From the IMG/VR virus record IMGVR_UViG_3300037336_000053, positions 32,001 to 96,000 of that record: DNA of 64,000 nucleotides. One strand, given 5' to 3'. The translations under genes and the position numbers were made by a program. This stretch comes from a virus. The notes under the pieces were generated by a model. The model worked only from the letters and a program-made list of their open reading frames with translations. It had not been told where the DNA came from and did not search any database. Below, piece by piece: positions 1 through 32,664 of the stretch. Position 1 is the first letter of the stretch; each line of letters begins with the position of its first letter.

Positions 1-328
1 CTGGAGTAAGCGACAGTATATGTTCTACAACTTCGTCGATAGTCTTGTCCATTACAAGATGTTTGAACTCAGGATAGATACTTGCGTAAGTGTCGCAGCC
101 AGTAAACACCAGCGGCAAGTCTTCAAATACTTTTGCAGTTAGATGCACACCGGAGTCAATAAGTTTTTTAACTTCTGGATTATATTTAGCTTTAGGAGTA
201 CCACGAGGAAGTCCAAAGTTTTGACAACGGAAGTTGCAACCATATGTACGTAGGAATACACTAGGTACACCTACATATGCACCTTCGCCTTGTATACTGT
301 AAAAGGCTTCGCTATATCTCAATTTCAT
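1..328 (-). CDS. queE: 7-carboxy-7-deazaguanine synthase (radical SAM), 5' part only; runs off the window edge
   Basis: Hand translation [35 protein letters not shown]...FTGCDTYAS gives the typical QueE N-terminus (F-S-I-Q-G-E-G, F-L-R-T-x-G-C-N). ATG overlaps the folE stop (ATGA). Not in the supplied ORF track. Confidence 0.9.
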
Positions 329-1017
329 CGTGCAAACTCCTGTTGCAGTTTAATATTGTCAAAGAATTCTTTCTTTGTACCAGCATCGTGTTTAAAGCTA
401 CCTTCAAGTACAGTAGTTTGTGTAAGACTACTATTTGCCATGATGCCGCGATTCTCACAGCATCCGTGTGTTGCTTGAATATACACTCCTAAGTTACTAG
501 TACCTGTAGCAGCTTTAATCTCACGTGCGATGTCATTACACAGTTCTTCTTGTAATGTACCACGTCTAGCACACCACTGTGCAATACGAGTATATTTGCT
601 AAGACCAATTAACTTTTGAGAAGCAATAATGCCAATATAAGCAATGCCACTAACGGGCTGGTGATGATGACTGCACATGCTACGCAACTCACTGCGAACA
701 ACCAACATGCCTTCATATCTATCCTTGCTGTCATTTGGGAACGCCGTTGCACTAGGCATAGGATCATAACGTCCGCTCATAATCTCATTGTAGTACATTT
801 TAGCAAGGCGCTTTGCAGTACCTTTGCTGTTAGGATCATTTTCACGATCAATTAGCAGTGTGTCAAGTACACTTTCAAATGCTTGTGCAGCTTCGTTGAT
901 AAGGATGTCTTTTGTATCATTGGAAATATATTCGCTGATGTTATCGCCTGCCCAAAAGCGTTTATTTTCCGAGTGCATCTTCTCACGAAGCACTTGAGAT
1001 AAGTTTTTTTCTGTCAT
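325..1017 (-). CDS. folE: GTP cyclohydrolase I
   Basis: [33 protein letters not shown] and HGCCENRGI motifs of FolE. Confidence 0.95.
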
Positions 1018-1060
1018 TTATTTCTCCGAGTTATTGACGTGGATGTCTTATATACTATTA

Positions 1061-1089
1061 AGTATACACTGTTATTTAGGCTTTGTCAA
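1061..1089 (-). promoter_or_regulatory. sigma70-type promoter for folE-queE, with a TAAATA motif inside the spacer
   Basis: TTGACA-17 nt-TATACT (1089-1084 and 1066-1061). TAAATA at 1079-1074. Confidence 0.8.
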
Positions 1090-1432
1090 GTAGTTTCTTA
1101 TAATTTCCTTTTTCAGGAATTACGTGCCTTACGCCACCTCGAGGATCCGCCATGTCCTCTTTGCGTCGTGGAATCAAATGTACATGAGCATATTCTACAG
1201 TTTGTCCTGCCGCTTCGCCTACATTCTGTCCTATGTTAAACGCTTCACAATATCCACGTTCTGTCCAATCGTATCCCCACTTGTATGCTGCTTCCCAGCA
1301 TTTTACAAGATGTTGCCAATCTTCTACTTTAGGAACAAAAAGAACGTGACCTTCTGTTACCGGAAAGTCGTCCTTATATACTGTAAAGTCTTTTGTATCT
1401 ACTAATACTTCAGTCCAAGGTTTAGTATTCAT
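1076..1432 (-). CDS. HIT-family nucleotide hydrolase
   Basis: FPVTEGHVLFVPK, FNIGQNVGEAAGQTV and YAHVHLIPR (first triad His replaced by Tyr). Confidence 0.9.
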   Translation of the reverse strand: MNTKPWTEVLVDTKDFTVYKDDFPVTEGHVLFVPKVEDWQHLVKCWEAAYKWGYDWTERGYCEAFNIGQNVGEAAGQTVEYAHVHLIPRRKEDMADPRGGVRHVIPEKGNYKKLLDKA

Positions 1433-1979
1433 TAACAGTTTCCCAAGGATAAACTAACCAAACGTCATCTTCTGCTTTGTTAATTTCGTGACAAGTATAA
1501 TCTACGGTGCCGTTAAACCCACTTGCTAGATTATCTGTAAGTGTAGCAAAGCGAACATTCTTATGCCAAACTGTATTCCAAGTTTCTTCATCGGGCAAAC
1601 AACTGCTCTGCCAATCTTCTTTGATCCAGTTAAATGTAGCACCGCTATCGTTGATATCATCTACAATAAGAATATTCTTACGTAGTGACAGGTCCCATCT
1701 TGCACCAGTAATGCCGGTTTCTTCAGCATTATTATATCCAAACGCTTCCTCGCTCATCCAAAGATTACTCTCAGGTCCGCATTCACTATCGCGCAAACTA
1801 ACTTTAAGTGCTTCGCAGCGAACTTTAAGCATGTTACTAATGATAGTAGCAGGAATATTGCCGCCACGAGTAATTCCTACAATATAATCAGGACGCCAGT
1901 TGTCTGCATACATGCTAGTAACAATCTGTACGCACATCTTTTCAATGTCTTGCCAACTGTAATAATGTTTCTTAATCAT
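1422..1979 (-). CDS. Type I phosphoribosyltransferase (purine PRT-like)
   Basis: IVGITRGG and the PRPP-binding loop ILIVDDINDSGATF; C-terminal WLVYPWE. Confidence 0.9.
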   Translation of the reverse strand: MIKKHYYSWQDIEKMCVQIVTSMYADNWRPDYIVGITRGGNIPATIISNMLKVRCEALKVSLRDSECGPESNLWMSEEAFGYNNAEETGITGARWDLSLRKNILIVDDINDSGATFNWIKEDWQSSCLPDEETWNTVWHKNVRFATLTDNLASGFNGTVDYTCHEINKAEDDVWLVYPWETVNEY

Positions 1980-2275
1980 TTCATGCTCTCCAGTGTTGCA
2001 ATTTTAGCAATCTTATCACCAAAATCATCGTCCTTGTGAATAATGTAAGTAGTTGTATTAGTACGATCTTTTACCCGATCATATGTTCGAAACTCTACCA
2101 CACGTCCGCCTATTGCACTAAACACTCTAAAGTTTAGTATAGGGTCAGCATCGCACACAGTTGCTTCAGTATCACGCGAACATGTTACCGTGACACGACC
2201 AACTGTGCATTTTTCTTCTTCATAATCGCTACCTTGCCTTGCCCAGCTAGCTACTAGTTTTTTAAACCATCTCAT
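1976..2275 (-). CDS. hypothetical protein
   Basis: ORF overlaps both neighbours by ATGA coupling. Confidence 0.7.
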   Translation of the reverse strand: MRWFKKLVASWARQGSDYEEEKCTVGRVTVTCSRDTEATVCDADPILNFRVFSAIGGRVVEFRTYDRVKDRTNTTTYIIHKDDDFGDKIAKIATLESMK

Positions 2276-2655
2276 TTAGATTCCTTAATTGCATCAAATG
2301 TTTTATACTTTGCAAGTTGCGACTCATACGCATCTTTTAGTTCTTTTAGCTTAGGATACTTTGCTTCCATATCTACGTGTTGCTTTAATAATAACACAGA
2401 GTCACGCAGTTCGTCAAGTTCTTTCATAACATCTCTGCCTTGAACAACAAGAGGAATATCAATCTGCACCGTATTAGGATCTAACGAGTCTCTTATAGTC
2501 AGATTACCAGTAATAGCACTAGCACTACTATACGTTCCGGTTAACACACCAGTATTAGTACAACTAATATACCCGCTCAGAGCAGACATTTTTTGTGCTG
2601 CTGATCCGGACAAGAGTCCAATGGTGTTAGAACTGGAATTAGTGTTCGAGCTCAT
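2272..2655 (-). CDS. hypothetical protein (Ser-rich N-terminus, C-terminal coiled coil)
   Basis: ORF track; coupled to neighbouring genes. Confidence 0.65.
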   Translation of the reverse strand: MSSNTNSSSNTIGLLSGSAAQKMSALSGYISCTNTGVLTGTYSSASAITGNLTIRDSLDPNTVQIDIPLVVQGRDVMKELDELRDSVLLLKQHVDMEAKYPKLKELKDAYESQLAKYKTFDAIKESK

Positions 2656-3118
2656 ATTTTTCCTTCAAGTATTGTTCATGTTGTACCCAAGCACCGTCTT
2701 TGACAAAGCCCCATTCTCTTAGTTTAGGACCAGGTACAAACAAAGTCCAAGGCTCAATACCAGGCTCAAGTTCAATGCTATGAAGAGACTTAGGACTGCT
2801 AAACCTAAAATGCCCCGGTCGTCTCCACAATTTACCTGCTGGAGTATGTTCCCAATACCCGCCGCTAAGAATAAAAGTAAAGTAAGGCCAAGGATGATCA
2901 TGTAAGTCATCTAAATCTCCTTTATGAAAGTTATGTAAAAAGACATTAAACGGAAACCATGTACGCTCTTTTAAGAAAAGATAATAGCGTGTTAAGTACG
3001 GCTCGTTGTGGTAACGGTCCATAATCACACGCTTGCGATCTACACGTTCTAGCAGTTTAAGAAAGATTGTGCCAATAGATATATTATCCTTTAATTGTGT
3101 CATACAATGCTGCTCCAC
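2639..3118 (-). CDS. cupin-fold metalloprotein (cysteine-dioxygenase-like)
   Basis: FLHNFHKGDLDDLHDHPW...ILSGGYWEH...LHSIEL carries the cupin H-x-H/E/H metal motif. Confidence 0.65.
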   Translation of the reverse strand: MEQHCMTQLKDNISIGTIFLKLLERVDRKRVIMDRYHNEPYLTRYYLFLKERTWFPFNVFLHNFHKGDLDDLHDHPWPYFTFILSGGYWEHTPAGKLWRRPGHFRFSSPKSLHSIELEPGIEPWTLFVPGPKLREWGFVKDGAWVQHEQYLKEKYELEH

Positions 3119-4181
3119 TAAAAAATTCTTTGTTTAGTTTAGTAACTTGTTTAGCTAGACTAACTGCAAAGTCATCGTAATTTTCCATGTACTCTACAAT
3201 ACGTGCAATTACTTTGTCTTTGTGATACAAGTAAGCGTCATAGTCTTCAGTCCATTCGCTTGGGTATAAGAATTCTGGAACAGCCATTTCACTGTAGCTT
3301 AGTCTATTCGGCACCATAGGAATAGCATTTACTAATGCACCTTCATACCAACTAATACCTAGTGTTTCTTGTAGGTTAGCACTAAACACAAGTTTAGCTT
3401 CCCCTAGCAAGTTATGATATTCATTCTTTGTAAGCTGTTGCTCTTGACAAACAACAAACTCATATTGTGGCAGGAGCTGTGCCAAGTCTCTAAAAATATC
3501 AACTTGCTTCTCAGGAGCAACACGATGTGGAAACAAGATCAAGTCTCGCTTCTCCATACCTTTATATTGTGTTAAGCTATCTTTAAGATACTCCATAGGC
3601 CATCCTACACGAACAATTTTACCACCGTCGTAGATTTCTTCCCAGTCATCGTCGTACCAAGGATTCTCTACCATCATGCCGCCGTGCAGTAATTCATCAA
3701 AGAACATCCGAACATGGAACTCTGTAGCAAAGAAGTTATTGTCGTACACATGATACATACTCTTCTCAGCATGTCTTACCCAGGGCTTATTGCCAATTAG
3801 CCTACCAAGAAAATCATGAGGATCATAACTACCAGCATGCCATAAGCCACCGATTCTGATATCAACGCCCAAGAGCTCAGCCATGTAACGAAGCTGGATA
3901 ACAGTTGGGTTCCAAGCATCCGTATATAGAAAATAGTCTCCATTCTTTACCTCACCTTTGCAAAACATTTCACCAATGATTTCTAATTGCTTACTCTTAT
4001 AAACATTAGTACCACCAAAATTAAGAAACGCCCCAGGCGTAGTTGCCTGAGGAGTATTTCCGCCGCTAATAACTTTAACATCTTCATTAGTAGCATGCCG
4101 CATTTGCTTAGGCAAATACTCTTTCCACTGTTTAGTGTAGCGGGTATCTACTGCTTCAATGTCTACTATGAAGATTGTCAT
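3084..4181 (-). CDS. GT-B fold glycosyltransferase
   Basis: 365 aa; ILFPHRVAPEKQ and LVFSANLQETLGISWYEGALVNAIPMVP resemble the GT4 E-x7-E region. Confidence 0.8.
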   Translation of the reverse strand: MTIFIVDIEAVDTRYTKQWKEYLPKQMRHATNEDVKVISGGNTPQATTPGAFLNFGGTNVYKSKQLEIIGEMFCKGEVKNGDYFLYTDAWNPTVIQLRYMAELLGVDIRIGGLWHAGSYDPHDFLGRLIGNKPWVRHAEKSMYHVYDNNFFATEFHVRMFFDELLHGGMMVENPWYDDDWEEIYDGGKIVRVGWPMEYLKDSLTQYKGMEKRDLILFPHRVAPEKQVDIFRDLAQLLPQYEFVVCQEQQLTKNEYHNLLGEAKLVFSANLQETLGISWYEGALVNAIPMVPNRLSYSEMAVPEFLYPSEWTEDYDAYLYHKDKVIARIVEYMENYDDFAVSLAKQVTKLNKEFFSGAALYDTIKG

Positions 4182-9125: not shown

Positions 9126-9868
9126 TATTTGCTCTGCGCTGGAAGGATGTAGTTGTATTTTGCCATACCTGAATCAACACTAATCATCATAGCACCCTGA
9201 TCACTAATGCTCATAGTAGTAGTACCGCTTAGATTTAAAATACTTTGAACAGCGGCAACTGGCCAACTCCAAGTGTGCGACAGTTTACCTTTTATTGCAT
9301 TTTGAAATACAAACTCACCTGCGTGTGTGCTTGCATCGCCAAAGCTAAACACCAAGTCAGTTGCACTGCCTGTTGCAGTAGTCTTAACATTAAATGTAGG
9401 TTCCTCACTATGAGCAGCACTCTGTAACTTCATACGTCCAATTGCTGCTACGCTAGGCTGAAATTCAACTTGCCATGTTGCACCTTTAAATGTAACCGTC
9501 TTAAGTTTTTCGTCAATGATTGCTCGGTTCATAAAGCGATAATCATTTTCAAAGTCACCAGTTGAGTTTTCAAAGTGAATATGTGTAGGAATAGTTTCGC
9601 CATTGCGTACTGCTTTGACTACTTCAATCTTTGCATCTTTTTGATACTCGGGATTTTTTAAGTGTAGTGCAAGTTTGTCCAAATTGGGCATACCAAATAT
9701 ACCATCAAATTCTGTTACTGGTGTATGTGCCGTTGCAGTCATAATAACTGAACGATCATCTGCCATACTTTCAACGACTGTGCTAGTAGTATCAGCAGTT
9801 ACTTTAACTAATGATAAAGACCCTAGTGCGTGTGTATGTGCTACTACGTCTTGTAAAATATCTTTCAT
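9125..9868 (-). CDS. DNA sliding clamp (gp45/PCNA-like)
   Basis: 247 aa with a two-domain beta pattern ending YNYILPAQSK; near polB, and a clamp loader is present at 42277. Confidence 0.7.
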   Translation of the reverse strand: MKDILQDVVAHTHALGSLSLVKVTADTTSTVVESMADDRSVIMTATAHTPVTEFDGIFGMPNLDKLALHLKNPEYQKDAKIEVVKAVRNGETIPTHIHFENSTGDFENDYRFMNRAIIDEKLKTVTFKGATWQVEFQPSVAAIGRMKLQSAAHSEEPTFNVKTTATGSATDLVFSFGDASTHAGEFVFQNAIKGKLSHTWSWPVAAVQSILNLSGTTTMSISDQGAMMISVDSGMAKYNYILPAQSK

Positions 9869-10626
9869 GCGATTTCTCCTGTGTTAAGTTTTATTATAGT
9901 GCCTAATTCTTTGTTTGTCAAGAACTCTTTTATCATATATTTAGGTTTATATCCTAAGGCTTTCATTTTTTCTAAATTTGCACATGTAAATGTTCTTTCA
10001 TGTAGAGTATTTAGGCGGATAGGCAAGCCAGGAGCCAAGTCCTGAACTCTAATTGGATCACCTGAACCAATATCTATTATACCATTAACGTGCGTCTTTT
10101 TAATCAGTATTTCAATTGCATCGCAAATATCGTTAATGTGTACAAAATCTCTGTGGTGTTGAGTTACGTATTCTAATGTACCATTAAATAGTTTATCAAA
10201 GAACATGTTCTTTCTAGGTAAGTCGGAATACACAGTGTGGAATCGCATACCTAAAGTATCAGTATACCGTGTTGCTAATTTTTCCAGTATGTACTTAGAT
10301 GCCGCATAAGGGTTCAAATCGGGCTCGTACGCACTGCTTGAGCTTGCATACAATATGCGAGCGTTACTATAGCGTTCAAACAGTCTACGGCTTGCTTCTA
10401 CATTGTTTAACCAATAAGCACCCGGGTCATTTAGGCTTTCACGAACACCGCTTTTTCCTGCTAGATGTATTACAAGATCGACATGATTCGGAAAGTCACA
10501 AGTAAGCAAGTTGGTACCTGCTTGCAAGTCTATACAGTGTATAACTTCTACATCATTGTTATTTGTTAATCGTGCAAGTAATGCAGTACCTATAAAGCCC
10601 CTGTGACCCGTTAGCAAAATTTTCAT
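9865..10626 (-). CDS. NAD-dependent epimerase/dehydratase (extended SDR)
   Basis: ILLTGHRGFIG, VIHLAG, ASSSS and YAASK. Confidence 0.9.
   Translation of the reverse strand: MKILLTGHRGFIGTALLARLTNNNDVEVIHCIDLQAGTNLLTCDFPNHVDLVIHLAGKSGVRESLNDPGAYWLNNVEASRRLFERYSNARILYASSSSAYEPDLNPYAASKYILEKLATRYTDTLGMRFHTVYSDLPRKNMFFDKLFNGTLEYVTQHHRDFVHINDICDAIEILIKKTHVNGIIDIGSGDPIRVQDLAPGLPIRLNTLHERTFTCANLEKMKALGYKPKYMIKEFLTNKELGTIIKLNTGEIA
9893..9921 (-). promoter_or_regulatory. consensus sigma70 promoter for the clamp operon, embedded in the end of the epimerase gene
   Basis: TTGACA(9921-9916)-17-TATAAT(9898-9893). Confidence 0.8.
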
Positions 10627-11336
10627 TTCGCTGCTACCTTTGCTTCTTGAAAATATTGTAACAGTTCAAATGTTTCTTGCCAGCGTTTTACAGGCTTTGC
10701 TACGTCTACTTCTAACGACAGCGGATAATCATTACCAGCAGGATCCATTCTATCACCAAAGAAGTAAAGTTTATCTTCAACTTCAAAGTCCTCAACAATT
10801 TGTGCTTTGTCCGCACCTAGTGGAGCAATATCAATACCAGTTTCGCCTCCTACCGTTGCTTGTAGTGTAGGAAATAATCCATTAAACTCTTGAGCAATAA
10901 TATTACGTTCGTCGAATAGAACATCATATATAACGTAATCTGCTCGTTGTTCTTTGTCAGCGCTACGTCCAACTATGCTAAAGTTAACAAGCCCAGGGCG
11001 ATGTTCGAAGTGTAATCCTGTACGAGTACAATAGGTACTTTCGGTTAGCTTATTAGATAACCATTCGTGTGCATCTTCGGGAAGTGTCCAATCATTAGTA
11101 TGAATATTCACACCTTTCTCCCAAACATCATTGCCGTTACAGTTATAAATCCTCATCACAGCATCACAAACATCAGGACCAACCTGTTCTAATGTTTTAG
11201 CATAGTCGCTACCTGTAACTAGATAAACTTCGTTTGCATAACAAAAGTCTATAAAGTATCCTTGAAACTCACTATTCATACCACTGCGACTTGGCGTTAA
11301 TGTTCCGTCAACATCAAATATAAACTTATTACCCAC
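10623..11336 (-). CDS. HAD-family phosphomannomutase (PMM2/Sec53-like)
   Basis: FIFDVDGTLTPSR, VTGSD, FEHRPGLVNFSIVGR, GGETGIDI and FFGDRMDPAGNDYP. Confidence 0.85.
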   Translation of the reverse strand: MGNKFIFDVDGTLTPSRSGMNSEFQGYFIDFCYANEVYLVTGSDYAKTLEQVGPDVCDAVMRIYNCNGNDVWEKGVNIHTNDWTLPEDAHEWLSNKLTESTYCTRTGLHFEHRPGLVNFSIVGRSADKEQRADYVIYDVLFDERNIIAQEFNGLFPTLQATVGGETGIDIAPLGADKAQIVEDFEVEDKLYFFGDRMDPAGNDYPLSLEVDVAKPVKRWQETFELLQYFQEAKVAAK

Positions 11337-11739
11337 GATCAGCTACTCTCTTTCTTAAATCACTTGAACTAAAACGATGATCTCGTTTATTAAAGTATAA
11401 TTTAATATCTCTTTTACGGCAAATGTCTTTACCAGTAAAATCCTTATCTCTATACTCCTCTCCTAATATTCTAACATGAATATGATACATTGTCAAGATA
11501 TCTTCTAGGTCTTGTTCGGTGCCATAAGGAATAATTTCATTTACATATCCTACTGCTTTAAGTTGCGTATAGCGCTCGACAATAGTCTGTATAGGGGAAT
11601 TTTTATCTAGACGATCAACGCTAGGATCCACTTGTAATCCGCAGATCAAATAATCGCACTGTTCTTTTGCTTCACGTAACATTTGTACATGCCCGGCGTG
11701 AAGTAAATCAAAAGTTGATGCGGTGAAACCTACCTTCAT
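11329..11739 (-). CDS. cytidylyltransferase (glycerol-3-phosphate CT/TagD-like)
   Basis: STFDLLHAGHVQML (HxGH), ERYTQL and FSSSDLRKR. Confidence 0.9.
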   Translation of the reverse strand: MKVGFTASTFDLLHAGHVQMLREAKEQCDYLICGLQVDPSVDRLDKNSPIQTIVERYTQLKAVGYVNEIIPYGTEQDLEDILTMYHIHVRILGEEYRDKDFTGKDICRKRDIKLYFNKRDHRFSSSDLRKRVADRG

Positions 11740-11844: not shown

Positions 11845-12837
11845 TTAGTCTCCAAAGTCAAACAAACTATTGAACGTGTTATGACTCTTAGTATCCTCTA
11901 ATGGATAGTTAAGCACACCGATCAAATTATCTAACTTATTATCAATAATTGTTTCTGCCATTGCTGCATCATCAAACGGAAGTTCTTTAAACCATTCAGG
12001 CATACGCAGCTCGTCTGTCGGATAAGCAACACTAGTGTACCCTAATGGATTCTGCTTGAGCTTACAAACAATAACTTTCATACCATCAACAATCTCCTGC
12101 GAGTATTTGTCACCATTCATACGCTTGAGTGTATTCCAGTTAATACTTGCCCTAACGTGTCCAGGCATATTAGCCTTGCCGGCTTTTTCTTCTAAGCGAC
12201 GATAATGTCCAACTTTGTTTGCACGTTTCGGACTACCTTTCTCCCAACCTGGCCGTTCACTAAATGCTAAACGAAATTGAGTAATACGTTCTAGCACATC
12301 AGTTTGCGGCTTATCTGTAAGTACCATAAGCAACAGCTCGCTTAAAAACTCTTGCATAAACACAGGAGTATCACTTCTACGTAAGTCTAAGCCCATGGCT
12401 TTTACTTTACCAGCTTTACCGTCTACGTCACTGCGGAAACCTTCTGTATCAATTACTAGAGCTGCATAACGCTTCTTAGTAATAAACAATCCGCTTTCTG
12501 CAACAATTTCACGACCTGCTGCAATAACAACACTTCGACTCTTTGGGCAATGGAATGATTTTGCCATCATATCTGGGAAGGTTATATTAGCTGCTTCTGA
12601 TACTTGATCGTAAAGTGTAATAACATTCTCTTTAGTCCAAGGAATATTGCCTGCCTTAATTTCATTTTGTAAAGTAGGCCAAGCACTAAAGTAGACCGAA
12701 TCTGTGTTATGAACCAAATGTCCATTTGCAAAGAAAAACGGATCGTCTTCGGCAATGCTTATATCATATACGTACTGGTCGCCTGTGTTTGGTATCTTTT
12801 CTACGCTTGCTACTCGTTGTCTTATTACTTCAGCCAT
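11845..12837 (-). CDS. polB: DNA polymerase B C-terminal half preceded by the 44-aa C-intein of a split intein
   Basis: MAEVIRQR...VYDISI...FFFANGHLVHN|TDSVYF; then FITKKRYA, KVKAMGLDLRRSDTP and PGHVRASINWN. Confidence 0.92.
   Translation of the reverse strand: MAEVIRQRVASVEKIPNTGDQYVYDISIAEDDPFFFANGHLVHNTDSVYFSAWPTLQNEIKAGNIPWTKENVITLYDQVSEAANITFPDMMAKSFHCPKSRSVVIAAGREIVAESGLFITKKRYAALVIDTEGFRSDVDGKAGKVKAMGLDLRRSDTPVFMQEFLSELLLMVLTDKPQTDVLERITQFRLAFSERPGWEKGSPKRANKVGHYRRLEEKAGKANMPGHVRASINWNTLKRMNGDKYSQEIVDGMKVIVCKLKQNPLGYTSVAYPTDELRMPEWFKELPFDDAAMAETIIDNKLDNLIGVLNYPLEDTKSHNTFNSLFDFGD
12706..12837 (-). mobile_element. split intein C-fragment (IntC, 44 aa)
   Basis: Block F VYDISI, block G HLVHN, +1 residue Thr. 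Confidence 0.9.
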
Positions 12838-13769
12838 GTTATGCACCTTTGAATTATTGTTTTAGGATCAGCCAAATACTCTGACTCCCATATGATTAGT
12901 GTGTCTATGTTACGCTTATCTTTTAATGCTTGAATCTTCTTTGCATCTTTTTCCCATACGTGTCTTGCTAATAACTCAGATTGTGGATGATACCAGTTTT
13001 CAGCGTATTTGTTAGGATTGCAATGCCAGTAGTCGCCATTAAATTCTATTGCTTTGTCATTGTGTACAATGTCATAAAAGTTCGGCTTGTCATTTGCCCA
13101 AATGCAATATTGTTTCGTTTTGTAATAATAGCGCAATTCTTCTTCCAGTGCAGACATTATTTCATCAGCAAACTGCTTTTCTAAATTACTTGAATATTTT
13201 TCTGACTGTTTATAATTAGCAATTATATCTAGTGCTACTGCTTCATCACAGTTGTTTCTTTCCATTACTACATCTAGTGAGTGTGACTTTATTCTACACA
13301 CTTCATTGTACATGTCTGTACCAGTTGTAGTACCAAACTTTTCTATGAAATATTCCTTTGTGTTTGTGTATGCCTGTCTATCGCAATATGATTGCCATTT
13401 AATAGCACCTGTCACTTCACCGTGCCGTTCTATTAAGTTTTTTAATGTAACAGCTCTTGATTTATTATATTCATCAAAGTCGGCTTCGGTCCATCCATGT
13501 TTCTCTTGTTTGTATTGCAGCGTATTAGAATACGCTTGTTTTCTTTTATAATCATCCCATGCAGCTTGACCCTGCACTGTTCCGTATTTCTTTTGCATAT
13601 TAACCAGTGTGCAGGCTGTTGACTTAGCAAACTCATCGTCTACTAGTTTAGCATGGGGATATGCGATTTTGTATTCTTTACCGTTCTTAAACTTTCCAGT
13701 ACATTTATAAAAAAAATGTGTCCACTGTAATCTTTTTGCGACTGTGCCGCACTCTATACATTTTGGCAT
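12825..13769 (-). mobile_element. free-standing Vsr/DUF559-like (PD-(D/E)xK) homing endonuclease between the polB halves
   Basis: C-terminal SNLEKQF...YDIVHNDKAIEFNGDYWHCNP...WEKDAKK...LIIWESEY; N-terminal CxxC and repeated KYG/KHG helical units. Own AGGAG and an upstream TAAATA. Confidence 0.85.
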
Positions 13770-13834
13770 GACTATGGTGATACTCCTATCGTTGTATGCT
13801 TGCTATACTTATTTAACATCATAGTCAAAAAACC

Positions 13835-14194
13835 CTACTTAGCAAGAGTAATAACTAAATCATTTTCTTGTAAATCTGTTGCCTTTATTTCCAGTAAGAA
13901 CCCATCTCGGTCTATCATTAAACTGTGATCTTCTGTTACTGTAACCGACGTTCCGTCTTCCATTGTTACCTTGTATAATTGCTTAGAAGTTTTATGACGC
14001 ATAACATAGTTCATTTTAGAAATAGTAATTTTATCATTTAATGCATGGAATCCAAGTGTTGTAATGTCCGAGTCGTTAAACATTGCATATTCCTTTCCAC
14101 TAGGATGTAATACTTTATCCTCAACTGCATCAAACAAATCTTCAATTGCAATCATGCCATTTGATGTGTTAATCATCGAATCACCGGTAACGCT
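13835..14194 (-). mobile_element. split intein N-fragment (IntN, 119 aa)
   Basis: Starts SVTGDSMI directly after YGD; block B VTVTEDHSLMI; ends IKATDLQENDLVITLAK-stop. Confidence 0.9.
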
Positions 14195-16006
14195 ATCACC
14201 ATAGATAACAGCATCACCAACGTGATCGTAAACTCCAGTAATAACTTTATTAACTTCTGCACTCATATGCTTAACAATAGTACGACCAGTAAGTGTAGTT
14301 GACTGTCCAATACGCTTATCAAAGAAGCGGCAACCAGGGTTAAGAATAGCACCATACAAACTGTTAAGCAAAATCTTCTTAACTAGCTGACGTTTATCCC
14401 AATACTCAATCTCTGCCTTATTACCTGCATCCTTAGCTTTCTTCAGCTTTGCTTGTAACTCTTTACGTTCACCATACCAACGCTTTAGAATACCTGGAAT
14501 AACACCTTCAAACTCTTGTGTAAAGATTGTACCATTGCTACTAAGCATCCATGGATTATTACTGTCAAATACTAGTTTGTAAATCTCTGCTCCGCTCATT
14601 ACTTCAGACTGGCCGTTTTCAAACTCAATAGTAAGTGCAACATCTTTACGTTTGGCCATAACAGCATCGTATTCTTCTGTTGCAAAGCGACCTTCCCAAC
14701 TACCGGCGAAGCTCTGTTTCTTAAGACCCATGTCTTCTGCTACACGAGCTTCTGATATGTCTGGACGAATTTGTCCTACAAGAGTTTCTGGAGCCATATT
14801 TAACGCACGAATCACTGAAGGGTACAGTGAGTTCAAGTCCATTGACCCAATCCACTTGTGCAAGCCCTTCTTAGGGAACGCAACATATGCGCCAGCAGCT
14901 TGTGTATTTTCTTCGTCGTCTCTATTCTTACGATTAGGAACTTGCAAGCCCCTGTGATGCGCTTCGTTAATAATACCCTGTTCAGTAACAGCAACGGCAC
15001 CCATTGTAGTTTGAATAAGCACTGTATTCTCGTGTGCAATAGTATTGCTTAATTCAATAAAGCGCAGTTTCCTATCCAGCTTGTCCAGCAGCGCAGTATC
15101 TTGAATGTTATATTCAATAAACTTTTTAAAGTCATTGTTATAAAGTTGATCCAATGTACCTTCGTATGCTGTCTTGTTTTCACCTACTTCAATTTCACCA
15201 ATAGCATCTAGTCGATAGCTGTGGCGTTCTTCATAGGTATACTTACGATACAAGTTTAAACTGTCCAAGTGTACACGACCAATCAAGTCATATGTTTCGC
15301 TTTCTTTACCAAACTTTTCGTAAATGCGCTTCTTAGGCAACTGACCCCACAAGCAAAACCGTCTTGTGTCATCTTTACTTAATACACGAGCTACACGATT
15401 GACAGTGTAGGGAATATCATAGCCTTCGCTGTTCCAACCACTTATTACGTCGCTGTCTTCAATAATTGTTAAGAACGTGTCTAACATGTCCTTTTCTTTA
15501 GCAAACAGCATTACGTTAGGAATATCTTTAAGCAACTCAGTCGCAGCTTCCATTGTAAGTGTTTTAGGAGGCACTGCTAAACACACCATTGTTTCTAGCC
15601 ACTGCAAATAAACGGAGATAGACGTAATGCCCATAAACGGATCGCTAGGATCTGCAAAGCCGCGCTCTGGGTCAAAGTCTGTCTCAATGTCGAAAAATGC
15701 AATATTTAGTTTAGGTGCGTCTTGGTTAAGGTAGTTTTCACTTAGACACTGAAAGATTGGATTAATGTCGCTTTCAAACAGCGTTTTGTCTCGATTGATT
15801 GCAATTTCCTTGCGGAAGTCTTTTGTATTCTTAGATACAATACGACTCAACGGATCACCGTACACGCTCTTGTACTTGCCCTTTTGATCCTTATAGTAAA
15901 ATGTATATTTTACAGGTTGTTCACGGAATATTCTAGCTCCGTCTTTTCGTTCAACTATCTTGATCAGATCATGATCACGGTCGAAAAATGCGTCTACATA
16001 ACTCAA
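13835..16006 (-). CDS. polB: DNA polymerase B N-terminal half (3'-5' exonuclease plus motifs A/B) fused to IntN
   Basis: FFDIETD, GWNSEGYDIPY, YNIQD, SMDLNSLYPS, KILLNSLYG, VIYGD|S. Confidence 0.95.
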   Translation of the reverse strand: MSYVDAFFDRDHDLIKIVERKDGARIFREQPVKYTFYYKDQKGKYKSVYGDPLSRIVSKNTKDFRKEIAINRDKTLFESDINPIFQCLSENYLNQDAPKLNIAFFDIETDFDPERGFADPSDPFMGITSISVYLQWLETMVCLAVPPKTLTMEAATELLKDIPNVMLFAKEKDMLDTFLTIIEDSDVISGWNSEGYDIPYTVNRVARVLSKDDTRRFCLWGQLPKKRIYEKFGKESETYDLIGRVHLDSLNLYRKYTYEERHSYRLDAIGEIEVGENKTAYEGTLDQLYNNDFKKFIEYNIQDTALLDKLDRKLRFIELSNTIAHENTVLIQTTMGAVAVTEQGIINEAHHRGLQVPNRKNRDDEENTQAAGAYVAFPKKGLHKWIGSMDLNSLYPSVIRALNMAPETLVGQIRPDISEARVAEDMGLKKQSFAGSWEGRFATEEYDAVMAKRKDVALTIEFENGQSEVMSGAEIYKLVFDSNNPWMLSSNGTIFTQEFEGVIPGILKRWYGERKELQAKLKKAKDAGNKAEIEYWDKRQLVKKILLNSLYGAILNPGCRFFDKRIGQSTTLTGRTIVKHMSAEVNKVITGVYDHVGDAVIYGDSVTGDSMINTSNGMIAIEDLFDAVEDKVLHPSGKEYAMFNDSDITTLGFHALNDKITISKMNYVMRHKTSKQLYKVTMEDGTSVTVTEDHSLMIDRDGFLLEIKATDLQENDLVITLAK

Positions 16007-31272: not shown

Positions 31273-32664
31273 TCAATGCTTGGCTCGGTAATCTGCCACC
31301 GCTGCTTTGATAGCGTCTTCTGCAAGAATACTACAGTGTATCTTAACAGGAGGCAGTGATAGCTCTTCTGCCAGTTCGCTGTTCTTGATCGCGCCTGCCT
31401 GATCTAGAGTCATACCTTTGACCATTTCAGTAATCAAACTGCTGGAGGCAATGGCTGAACCACAATTATGTGAACCTACTCGTTCTGAGAAAAACACATG
31501 AGCGCCGTCTTCCAATTTAAGATCGTATACCACAACCTTCTTATCATCCCGTTCGCACCCTCTTAGTTGATTGTGATGAGTAACCGCTGACACTGACACA
31601 ATTTTCATGCCATTGTGGATAAAGTTTTGTACCTGTTTCAACGAGGTATCAATTTCTTCTACAGCTAAAAATAAGGAGTCATATCCGGCTGAAGCTAATT
31701 GTTGCTTACGATTTACCACATAATCGGATTCATCAGATCGATCCTGCATAAATTTTGGCATATTTTTAGTGTATACTTCGATGCATTTTTTCTTGCCAGG
31801 AACAACAAAGTCTGGACTAACTGGCCCAGTACTTGATTGTATCCATACTTTACCTGAACACCATTTTGCAGCTACGTTATTTTTTTCAAACAAGTTAATA
31901 TATTTTTGTTCTATGCTAGTTGGGACGGAACGGTCTATATTCGCCATACCTTGTCTCCATTTATCCACATATACAGGATTTCCCCAATTTTTTCTGGAGG
32001 CTTCTGCCGATCGTTGTTTTTTTAACGGCAAATCCTTGCACACATATCCTGGCTGATTTTGCGGTAACACAGAGTGGTCAAACTGTGTATTCCACTCTGT
32101 CATTCTTTTGCTGTTTTTTTCTTTCAAATCAACTCTGTGTCGATTGTTAGTGAGAATCCTTAACTCATGTTCAGTGATTTCATACAGTTCTTGCCCAGCC
32201 ACTAGTTGTTGTGCTTCAACTGGAGTGTTATCAGCGTTCCAAAAAATATGTTCTTTAGTACATATTAGACTAAAAGTTTTAGATTTAATATTTTTTCTAC
32301 TTGTTTCTCTTTGAAACGTTACTACTAATAAATCATCAATTGTAACTGAATGTTTGAGTACCGCTCGAATCTTTTGATTAACGATGTTAGTTCCGTTCCA
32401 CGCTAATACTTCGTCACCAATGATTAGGTCACTTATTTTTTTTGATTTGGTTGGAGTATTGATTAGTGCATTACTAGTAAGGCAGCCATACGTTTTAAAA
32501 CGCGCATCAATGATAACATCGTCTACGACTTTGATTTGCAACTTCATCACGTCACCACAAGCTGGCGCGCCGACCATTCCAGTACCAACGGTTTCGTCTA
32601 TTTCAAACTTTCCCACATTGCGTGGATTTTCGTAGTGCTCGACTACTGCTGCTGAATATGCCAT
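31273..32664 (-). CDS. iscU: Fe-S scaffold IscU interrupted by an intein
   Basis: MAYS..V.EHYENPRNVG, GAPACGDVMKLQIKV, FKTYG|...|CGSAIASSSL, LSLPPVKIHCSILAEDAIKAA. Confidence 0.95.
   Translation of the reverse strand: MAYSAAVVEHYENPRNVGKFEIDETVGTGMVGAPACGDVMKLQIKVVDDVIIDARFKTYGCLTSNALINTPTKSKKISDLIIGDEVLAWNGTNIVNQKIRAVLKHSVTIDDLLVVTFQRETSRKNIKSKTFSLICTKEHIFWNADNTPVEAQQLVAGQELYEITEHELRILTNNRHRVDLKEKNSKRMTEWNTQFDHSVLPQNQPGYVCKDLPLKKQRSAEASRKNWGNPVYVDKWRQGMANIDRSVPTSIEQKYINLFEKNNVAAKWCSGKVWIQSSTGPVSPDFVVPGKKKCIEVYTKNMPKFMQDRSDESDYVVNRKQQLASAGYDSLFLAVEEIDTSLKQVQNFIHNGMKIVSVSAVTHHNQLRGCERDDKKVVVYDLKLEDGAHVFFSERVGSHNCGSAIASSSLITEMVKGMTLDQAGAIKNSELAEELSLPPVKIHCSILAEDAIKAAVADYRAKH
31465..32484 (-). 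mobile_element. 340-aa intein in IscU with a Vsr-like endonuclease domain
   Basis: C1 = CLTSNALI; block B ICTKEHIF; block F VYDLKL; terminal SHN; +1 Cys. Internal PTSIEQ...SPDFVVPGKKKCIEVY. Confidence 0.92.

Follow-up and report, generated by a model that had tools for sequence, protein, structure and literature searches.

A probable mobile cassette of a split intein and a Vsr-like endonuclease in motif C of a jumbo-phage family B DNA polymerase

We identified a broken DNA polymerase gene in a 64,000-nt stretch of viral DNA, positions 32,001 to 96,000 of the IMG/VR record IMGVR_UViG_3300037336_000053, which we refer to as the window. The gene lies on the minus strand, encodes a family B DNA polymerase (PolB), and is interrupted between the YGD and the TDS of its motif C. 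In all likelihood, the interruption is a mobile fractured-gene cassette sitting in the pol-c site of a jumbo-phage PolB and made up of a trans-splicing split intein and a Vsr-like homing endonuclease. The polymerase would be translated as two polypeptides, whose 119-aa N-intein and 44-aa C-intein would associate into one HINT fold. Class-1 protein trans-splicing via oxyester intermediates (an acyl shift at Ser1, attack by Thr+1, and cyclisation of the terminal Asn) would then join YGD to TDS and restore motif C with its catalytic aspartates. During co-infection, the homing endonuclease presumably cleaves polB alleles that lack the cassette, close to their YGD/TDS codons, and a cut genome repaired from the occupied allele would receive the whole cassette along with a few tens of bases of its flanks. 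The arrangement is a further example of a layout already known and tested in other phages and involves no new mechanism. What is new is the consistency of the PolB arrangement across 80 endonuclease loci, the empty site in most of the closest relatives, and a nearly identical cassette in a diverged phage.

The N-half open reading frame (ORF) (13835..16006, minus strand like all features of the locus) encodes 723 aa, of which 604 belong to the N-extein (14195..16006) and 119 to the N-intein (13835..14194). The N-extein contains the exonuclease domain, motif A (DLNSLYPS) and motif B (KILLNSLYG), ends in VIYGD, and matches the Pfam families DNA_pol_B_exo1 (4.2e-20) and DNA_pol_B (1.9e-27) as well as phrog_262 (4e-146). 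The N-intein begins with SVTGDS, carries Ser1, the R-H pair of the NX motif and a T-E-D-H block B, and ends in LVITLAK before a TAG stop codon at 13835-13837. After a 65-nt spacer (13770..13834), which contains the ribosome-binding site GATAGGAGTATC, comes the free-standing 314-aa endonuclease ORF (12825..13769, stop codon 12825-12827), in a frame that differs from that of the PolB halves. The C-half ORF (11845..12846) has a conserved ATG at 12837, with an SD-like (Shine-Dalgarno-like) AAGGTG 6 nt upstream. From this ATG run the 44-aa C-intein (12706..12837), with block F beginning VYD and block G ending GHLVHN, and then the C-extein of 286 aa plus stop codon (11845..12705), which starts with TDSVYFS, the second half of motif C, and matches phrog_1918 (6.5e-44) and phrog_262 (9e-41). 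The junctions are YGD|S at 14195/14194 and HN|T at 12706/12705, the end of the endonuclease gene overlaps the first 13 nt of the C-intein reading frame, and the cassette of N-intein, endonuclease and C-intein measures 1489 nt. A prediction made earlier from the sequence alone (the original prediction) had given several of these coordinates, the two intein lengths, the HN|TDS junction and the 13-nt overlap, and every one proved correct to the base.

With its place between YGD and TDS, the cassette occupies the pol-c site, the classical intein allele of archaeal and Mimivirus PolB described by Ogata et al. in 2005 (PMC549080). Inteins of those polymerases occupy the same point, YGD or YID before TDS or TDG, but they are contiguous elements, some of which contain a nested endonuclease domain. 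The Salicola phage SCTP-2 likewise carries a contiguous mini-intein at the same site (YGD|SVTHDT...LKN|TDS) within a single continuous ORF.

A stop codon and a gap within a polymerase gene could also reflect an assembly or sequencing artefact, or a decaying pseudogene, and the window does come from a metagenome-assembled viral contig, 123 kb long and 35% complete by the CheckV estimate. Assembly error, which the original prediction had named as an outcome that would overturn it, is excluded because four further IMG/VR contigs from different samples (L005-L008 in our locus numbering) carry the same structure at 99-100% identity and 80 diverged loci retain it. The same structure is also present in the isolate genomes of KP13-7 and Aes123. 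The two exteins can also be aligned over their full length with intact homologues, and we regard this whole line of explanation as effectively refuted.

Both halves of the interruption carry intein sequence. The Pfam family Intein_splicing matches residues 642-720 of the N-half to profile positions 15-94 (E 8.7e-9) and, in a complementary fashion, residues 5-47 of the C-half to positions 116-155 (E 1.6e-3). We aligned 35 non-redundant relatives for each half; among these sequences, otherwise 38-72% identical, Ser1 directly after YGD is invariant, as are the His of the R-H pair (the Arg nearly so), the T, D and H of block B, the V-Y-D of block F with its Asp, the terminal Asn (N44) and Thr+1, while the penultimate His is nearly invariant. 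All class-1 splicing residues are present in the window intein. The R-H NX motif is typical of Ser1 inteins (PMC10189870). Fragment lengths are tightly conserved, mostly 116 + 42 aa in the family and 119 + 44 aa in the window. The N-intein hits PDB 9hth, a solved PolB intein of the Aes type, at E 3.6e-14, with the Ser1 positions aligned, so that the comparison with known split inteins proposed in the original prediction ends in homology to the PolB1 split intein of the Aeromonas phage Aes123.

A docking model of the two halves, each supplied as an alignment with ten extein residues, scored 0.75 against 0.00 for the best control, with a contact agreement of at least 82% and a partner pLDDT (predicted local distance difference test) of at least 68 across the runs. 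The mark that it passed was also attained by 58 of 80 solved complexes and by 2 of 110 mismatched pairs; because split-intein complexes are already in the PDB, the model may have passed on its likeness to these and does not count as independent proof.

Splicing-dead intein halves might instead act as a non-covalent clasp that holds two polymerase pieces together. T4-like Aeromonas phages do run on a polymerase split into gp43A and gp43B without an intein (PMC2677866). A clasp would, nonetheless, leave a chain break inside motif C and some 160 extra residues at the active site, and it fits poorly with splicing residues that are all present and invariant or nearly so across the 35 relatives. We give it very little credence.

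Between the intein halves lies a protein of a large family (540 matches, nearly all of about 316 aa), which falls into phrog_22677 (1.4e-58), a group with no assigned function. An AlphaFold model of the 314-aa protein reached a pLDDT of 91.6. In this model, the first 190 residues fold into helical repeats that follow a C-x2-C...H...C cluster and probably bind DNA, and residues ~192-314 form a Vsr-like nuclease domain of the EDxHD type. In 30 family members, down to 43% identity, C4, C7, H18 and C23 are invariant in the N-terminal region and D233, E242, D246, W248, H249 and K278 in the C-terminal one, with D275 nearly so.

When residues 192-314 were compared with 48,161 chains by an exhaustive structural aligner, Vsr itself ranked first (1cw0_A; Z 10.6, root-mean-square deviation 2.8, 110 aligned residues), followed by the DUF559-like 3hrl_A (Z 9.6) and the catalytic domain of I-Bth0305I (3r3p_B; Z 9.3). 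A Foldseek search with the whole model had placed Vsr and I-Bth0305I at ranks 2-4, but with weak E values of 0.46-0.6, and it was the exhaustive aligner that settled the fold. A profile alignment to Vsr puts W248-H249 on W68-H69 of Vsr and E242 on F62, the position at which the family is reported to carry its extra glutamate (PMC2677866). That alignment is weak (E 0.14), and the Vsr-like assignment therefore rests on fold and motif. The Pfam family MTES_1575, a restriction-endonuclease-like family, matches 19 of the 30 members. A Pfam search with the window endonuclease alone gave nothing useful and a single-sequence PDB search gave nothing; NUMOD families were found neither in the Pfam scan of the endonuclease family nor by any other search of the window protein. 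The label "Vsr-like" in the original prediction was well chosen, since the fold matches, the alignment of the W-H pair and the extra glutamate, and the MTES_1575 matches all bear it out, and the active-site residues are invariant.

Endonucleases of this kind were later named the EDxHD family, with I-Bth0305I as its prototype, characterised by Taylor et al. in 2011 (PMC3239194; PDB 3r3p). Like the window protein, I-Bth0305I has a C-terminal Vsr-like nuclease domain after an N-terminal non-catalytic region, but its gene lies within a recA group I intron, and its N-terminal part has NUMOD2-like motifs. Homologues of the window endonuclease at 26-35% identity also occur in Prevotella Lak megaphages, a Desulfovibrio phage, the Tenacibaculum phages PTm1 and PTm5, and the Vibrio phage VPALA.

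When IMG/VR was scanned with the endonuclease alignment, 119 relatives came up, and 80 loci were kept. In every one of the 80, as far as the contig reaches, the endonuclease gene stands between a PolB N-extein with its N-intein and a C-intein with its C-extein, and its stop codon overlaps the C-intein start in nearly all. Most loci have the window's junction, YGD|S...HN|TDS. Nine of them (L019, L020, L023, L024, L032, L033, L037, L040 and L050) use a point two codons downstream, Y(G/A)DTD|S...HN|S, which is the junction of Aes123 and PA5oct. On the endonuclease tree, the two junction types separate with one change (support 69/13, and 89/81 for the YGD|TDS group), a weakly supported topology that would be compatible with a single two-codon shift of the insertion point. 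The closest PolB relatives among isolates are jumbo phages: PA5oct at 49% identity, then Phosso, SCTP-2, Atu_ph07 and Klebsiella phages of the genus Alcyoneusvirus. Megablast matched the locus to no isolate phage, and relatives were found at the protein level only.

The cassette is present in two of the 80 closest PolB relatives (84-96% aa identity); in the other 78, PolB is uninterrupted. In these 78, the matches to the N- and C-exteins abut with a gap of 0, which makes the cassette a precise insertion of 1489 nt between the codons for D and T. A recently converted allele appears in the loci L009 and L012. Their cassette differs from that of the window by 5 mismatches in 1489 nt (99.7% identity), whereas DNA identity drops to 76.4% and 80.2% in the exteins on either side. 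Such a cassette in such flanks indicates recent lateral transfer. The identical tract extends beyond the cassette by 24 nt on its upstream side and 44 nt on its downstream side, the nearest mismatches lying 25 nt before and 45 nt after the intein, and occupied alleles read ACA GAT TCG GTC after the junction where the closest empty alleles mostly read ACT GAC TCT GTA. Judged from these alignments, the pattern is what would be expected of recent homing with short co-conversion tracts, the break presumably being made by the endonuclease.

The cassette might also be a vertically inherited, immobile relic, with an inactive or repurposed endonuclease and a patchy distribution produced by losses and ordinary recombination. 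The endonuclease tree groups by insertion allele, which speaks for a long association with the intein and partly fits vertical descent, and the mechanism of transfer is read from the pattern rather than observed. A relic sits badly, on the other hand, with endonuclease active-site residues that stay invariant over 30 members, with exact junctions at a site left empty by nearly all of the closest relatives, and with an almost identical copy between diverged flanks. We consider it very unlikely, if slightly less so than a clasp.

Several points weigh against the mobile, splicing cassette that we favour. Splicing, the activity and target of the endonuclease, and the driving of transfer by the endonuclease are what we infer. 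Transfer between phages itself is seen in the alleles, but the ordinary recombination of co-infecting phages would give the same picture, and the identical flanks of L009 and L012 partly coincide with conserved motif C codons. The sequence likeness of the endonuclease to Vsr is weak, its ribosome-binding site in the window stands at a long spacing of 13 nt, and neither a promoter nor a regulatory hairpin finds support within the window.

As for its expression, the original prediction had given the endonuclease gene its own SD sequence and a TAAATA element. The former stood: AGGAG is indeed found ahead of the endonuclease ORF, as part of a motif, GATAGGAGTATC..CAT, that immediately precedes the ATG and is kept across diverged family members. 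TAAATA is present too, but its role as a promoter did not stand, and we rejected a T4 late-promoter reading, as TATAAATA is under-represented in the window (2 found against 7.8 expected). Scans for sigma-70 promoters and terminators came out at chance level (15 found against 14.1 expected), and a hairpin sequestering the SD sequence in the window spacer is degenerate and not significant (z -0.8). Two other loci look different. In L016 (2640-2695) and L078 (3955-4015), a perfect 10-bp hairpin, ATACTCCTAT/ATAGGAGTAT, buries the ribosome-binding site of the endonuclease (z -3.7 and -4.9, respectively) and is preceded by TAAATA. These hairpins recall control elements reported for fractured genes (PMC2677866), and their combination with TAAATA resembles the late-promoter and hairpin control of T4-type homing endonuclease genes.

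In 2009, Dassa, London, Stoddard, Schueler-Furman and Pietrokovski described fractured genes, mainly in phages, that combine split inteins with endonucleases, and about half of their fractured loci carry the Vsr-like endonuclease family (PMC2677866). As in the window, a split intein interrupts a gene of DNA metabolism, and its two halves enclose a free-standing endonuclease gene. The enzymes named in that study are gp41, IMPDH, DnaE, NrdA, NrdJ, ligase and terminase; PolB is not among them (PMC2677866). A split Pol intein of Nanoarchaeum equitans is known as well (PMC2677866). The window has the whole set, an enzyme gene split in two, intein halves at the break and an endonuclease gene between them. 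The fractured-gene reading of the original prediction is accordingly supported, with split intein halves flanking a free-standing Vsr-like endonuclease gene in PolB motif C.

The closest characterised counterpart is the PolB1 intein of Aes123, whose natural fragments (120 + 39 aa) trans-splice in vitro (PMC11923092). The GenBank record of this phage (JN377899) annotates an N-intein on gp43B1, a C-intein on gp43B2 and, between the two genes, a "putative VSR endonuclease". The two loci agree in the interrupted enzyme and motif, in the gene order of N-intein, endonuclease and C-intein, in the overlapping gene ends, in the absence of cysteine from the intein, and nearly in fragment size. The N-inteins are 28% identical (BLASTP E 6.5e-18) and the endonucleases 34% identical over 268 aa (E 8e-49). 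The insertion in Aes123, by contrast, follows Y-I-D-T-D|S with Ser1/Ser+1, and that of the window lies two codons upstream, at Y-G-D|T-D-S, with Ser1/Thr+1. The window therefore does not carry the PolB1 allele, which is defined by insertion after Y-x-D-T-D and Ser+1, and the inteins are homologous nonetheless. The Aes123 polymerase also has an additional, intein-less break between gp43A and gp43B1, and its host is a 160-kb T4-like phage of Aeromonas salmonicida, whereas that of the window is a jumbo phage. A literature search on Aes123 PolB1 together with Vsr returned unrelated papers only.

The split PolB intein of phage MIJ3 was published in 2019 by Imam et al. (PMC6892783). In the Pseudomonas jumbo phages MIJ3 and PA5oct, as in the window, a split intein breaks PolB within motif C and an endonuclease gene separates the two parts (PMC6892783), but the insertion is at YGDTD|S with Ser+1 and the endonuclease is a 560-aa protein described as HNH or Hef-like. 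The Klebsiella phage KP13-7 (Alcyoneusvirus, OP617745) shares the junction YGD|SVTGDS and the split intein and has a homologous 325-aa endonuclease between the halves, overlapping the start of the C-half. Its PolB is 39% and its endonuclease 34% identical to those of the window, all three KP13-7 genes are annotated only as hypothetical proteins, and we found no paper describing this polB locus.

Given these precedents, the original prediction went too far in presenting a new split intein: Aes123 in GenBank, MIJ3 (PMC6892783) and the pol-c allele (PMC549080) all precede it. As for the Ser1/Thr+1 pair that it had called uncommon, Ser1 with Ser+1 or Thr+1 has been counted in 58 InBase inteins (PMC10189870). 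The PolB split inteins of Aes123, CP21, LCGC14 and GOM-OPS-1 have been characterised, and all are Ser1/Ser+1 (PMC11923092, PMC12707363). Ser1/Thr+1 and the two-codon-upstream insertion set the window intein apart from the characterised phage PolB split inteins.

The locus is a natural snapshot of a cassette moving as one unit, with occupied, empty and recently converted alleles among close relatives, and this allele picture supports the model of gene breaking and homing proposed in 2009. Cysteine-less split inteins are scarce and sought after (PMC12707363). The family is a natural source of at least 40 different Ser1/Thr+1 pairs, three of the 40 free of cysteine, among them the window's, whose fragments contain none. 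The remark in the original prediction on biotechnological use is reasonable because such inteins are in demand and the window intein is cysteine-free. It is unlikely, but conceivable, that the window intein would prove to be the first characterised mesophilic, naturally split, cysteine-free Ser1/Thr+1 intein, perhaps orthogonal to the Aes/CL and LCGC14 inteins, and a tool for thiol-independent ligation. More speculatively still, it might serve as a control point for replication. If that were true, a polymerase split in its catalytic motif would tie replication to the rate or conditions of trans-splicing, a form of post-translational control, although the replication checkpoint of the original prediction is pure speculation, and nothing in the sequence speaks for or against it.

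Some loci of the family depart from the common layout. In L014 (4940-5840) and L029-L031 (4916-5596), an extra 600-900 nt lies between the endonuclease and C-intein genes, and these do not overlap. L080 (3576-5480) is divergent, with YGD|SVEGDT ... VHN|SSYFS, and, as read, splicing there would yield a motif C that lacks its T-D, although either the junction or our reading of it may be different at this locus. The polymerase of L018 (positions 1-3809; IMGVR_UViG_3300035492_000078, 302 kb) consists of three pieces: a further free-standing ORF of 565 aa, with the Vsr-like motif ..IEYNGVYWHS.., splits the N-extein upstream of motif B in an intein-free manner. This additional break matches the gp43A/gp43B1 break of Aes123. 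A gap similar to that of L018 is seen in L013, L021, L027, L042, L066, L078 and L080.

Directly downstream of polB in the window (9865-11739, minus strand) lie ORFs that, judged by eye from their translations, resemble an NAD-dependent sugar epimerase, a HAD/phosphomannomutase and a cytidylyltransferase.

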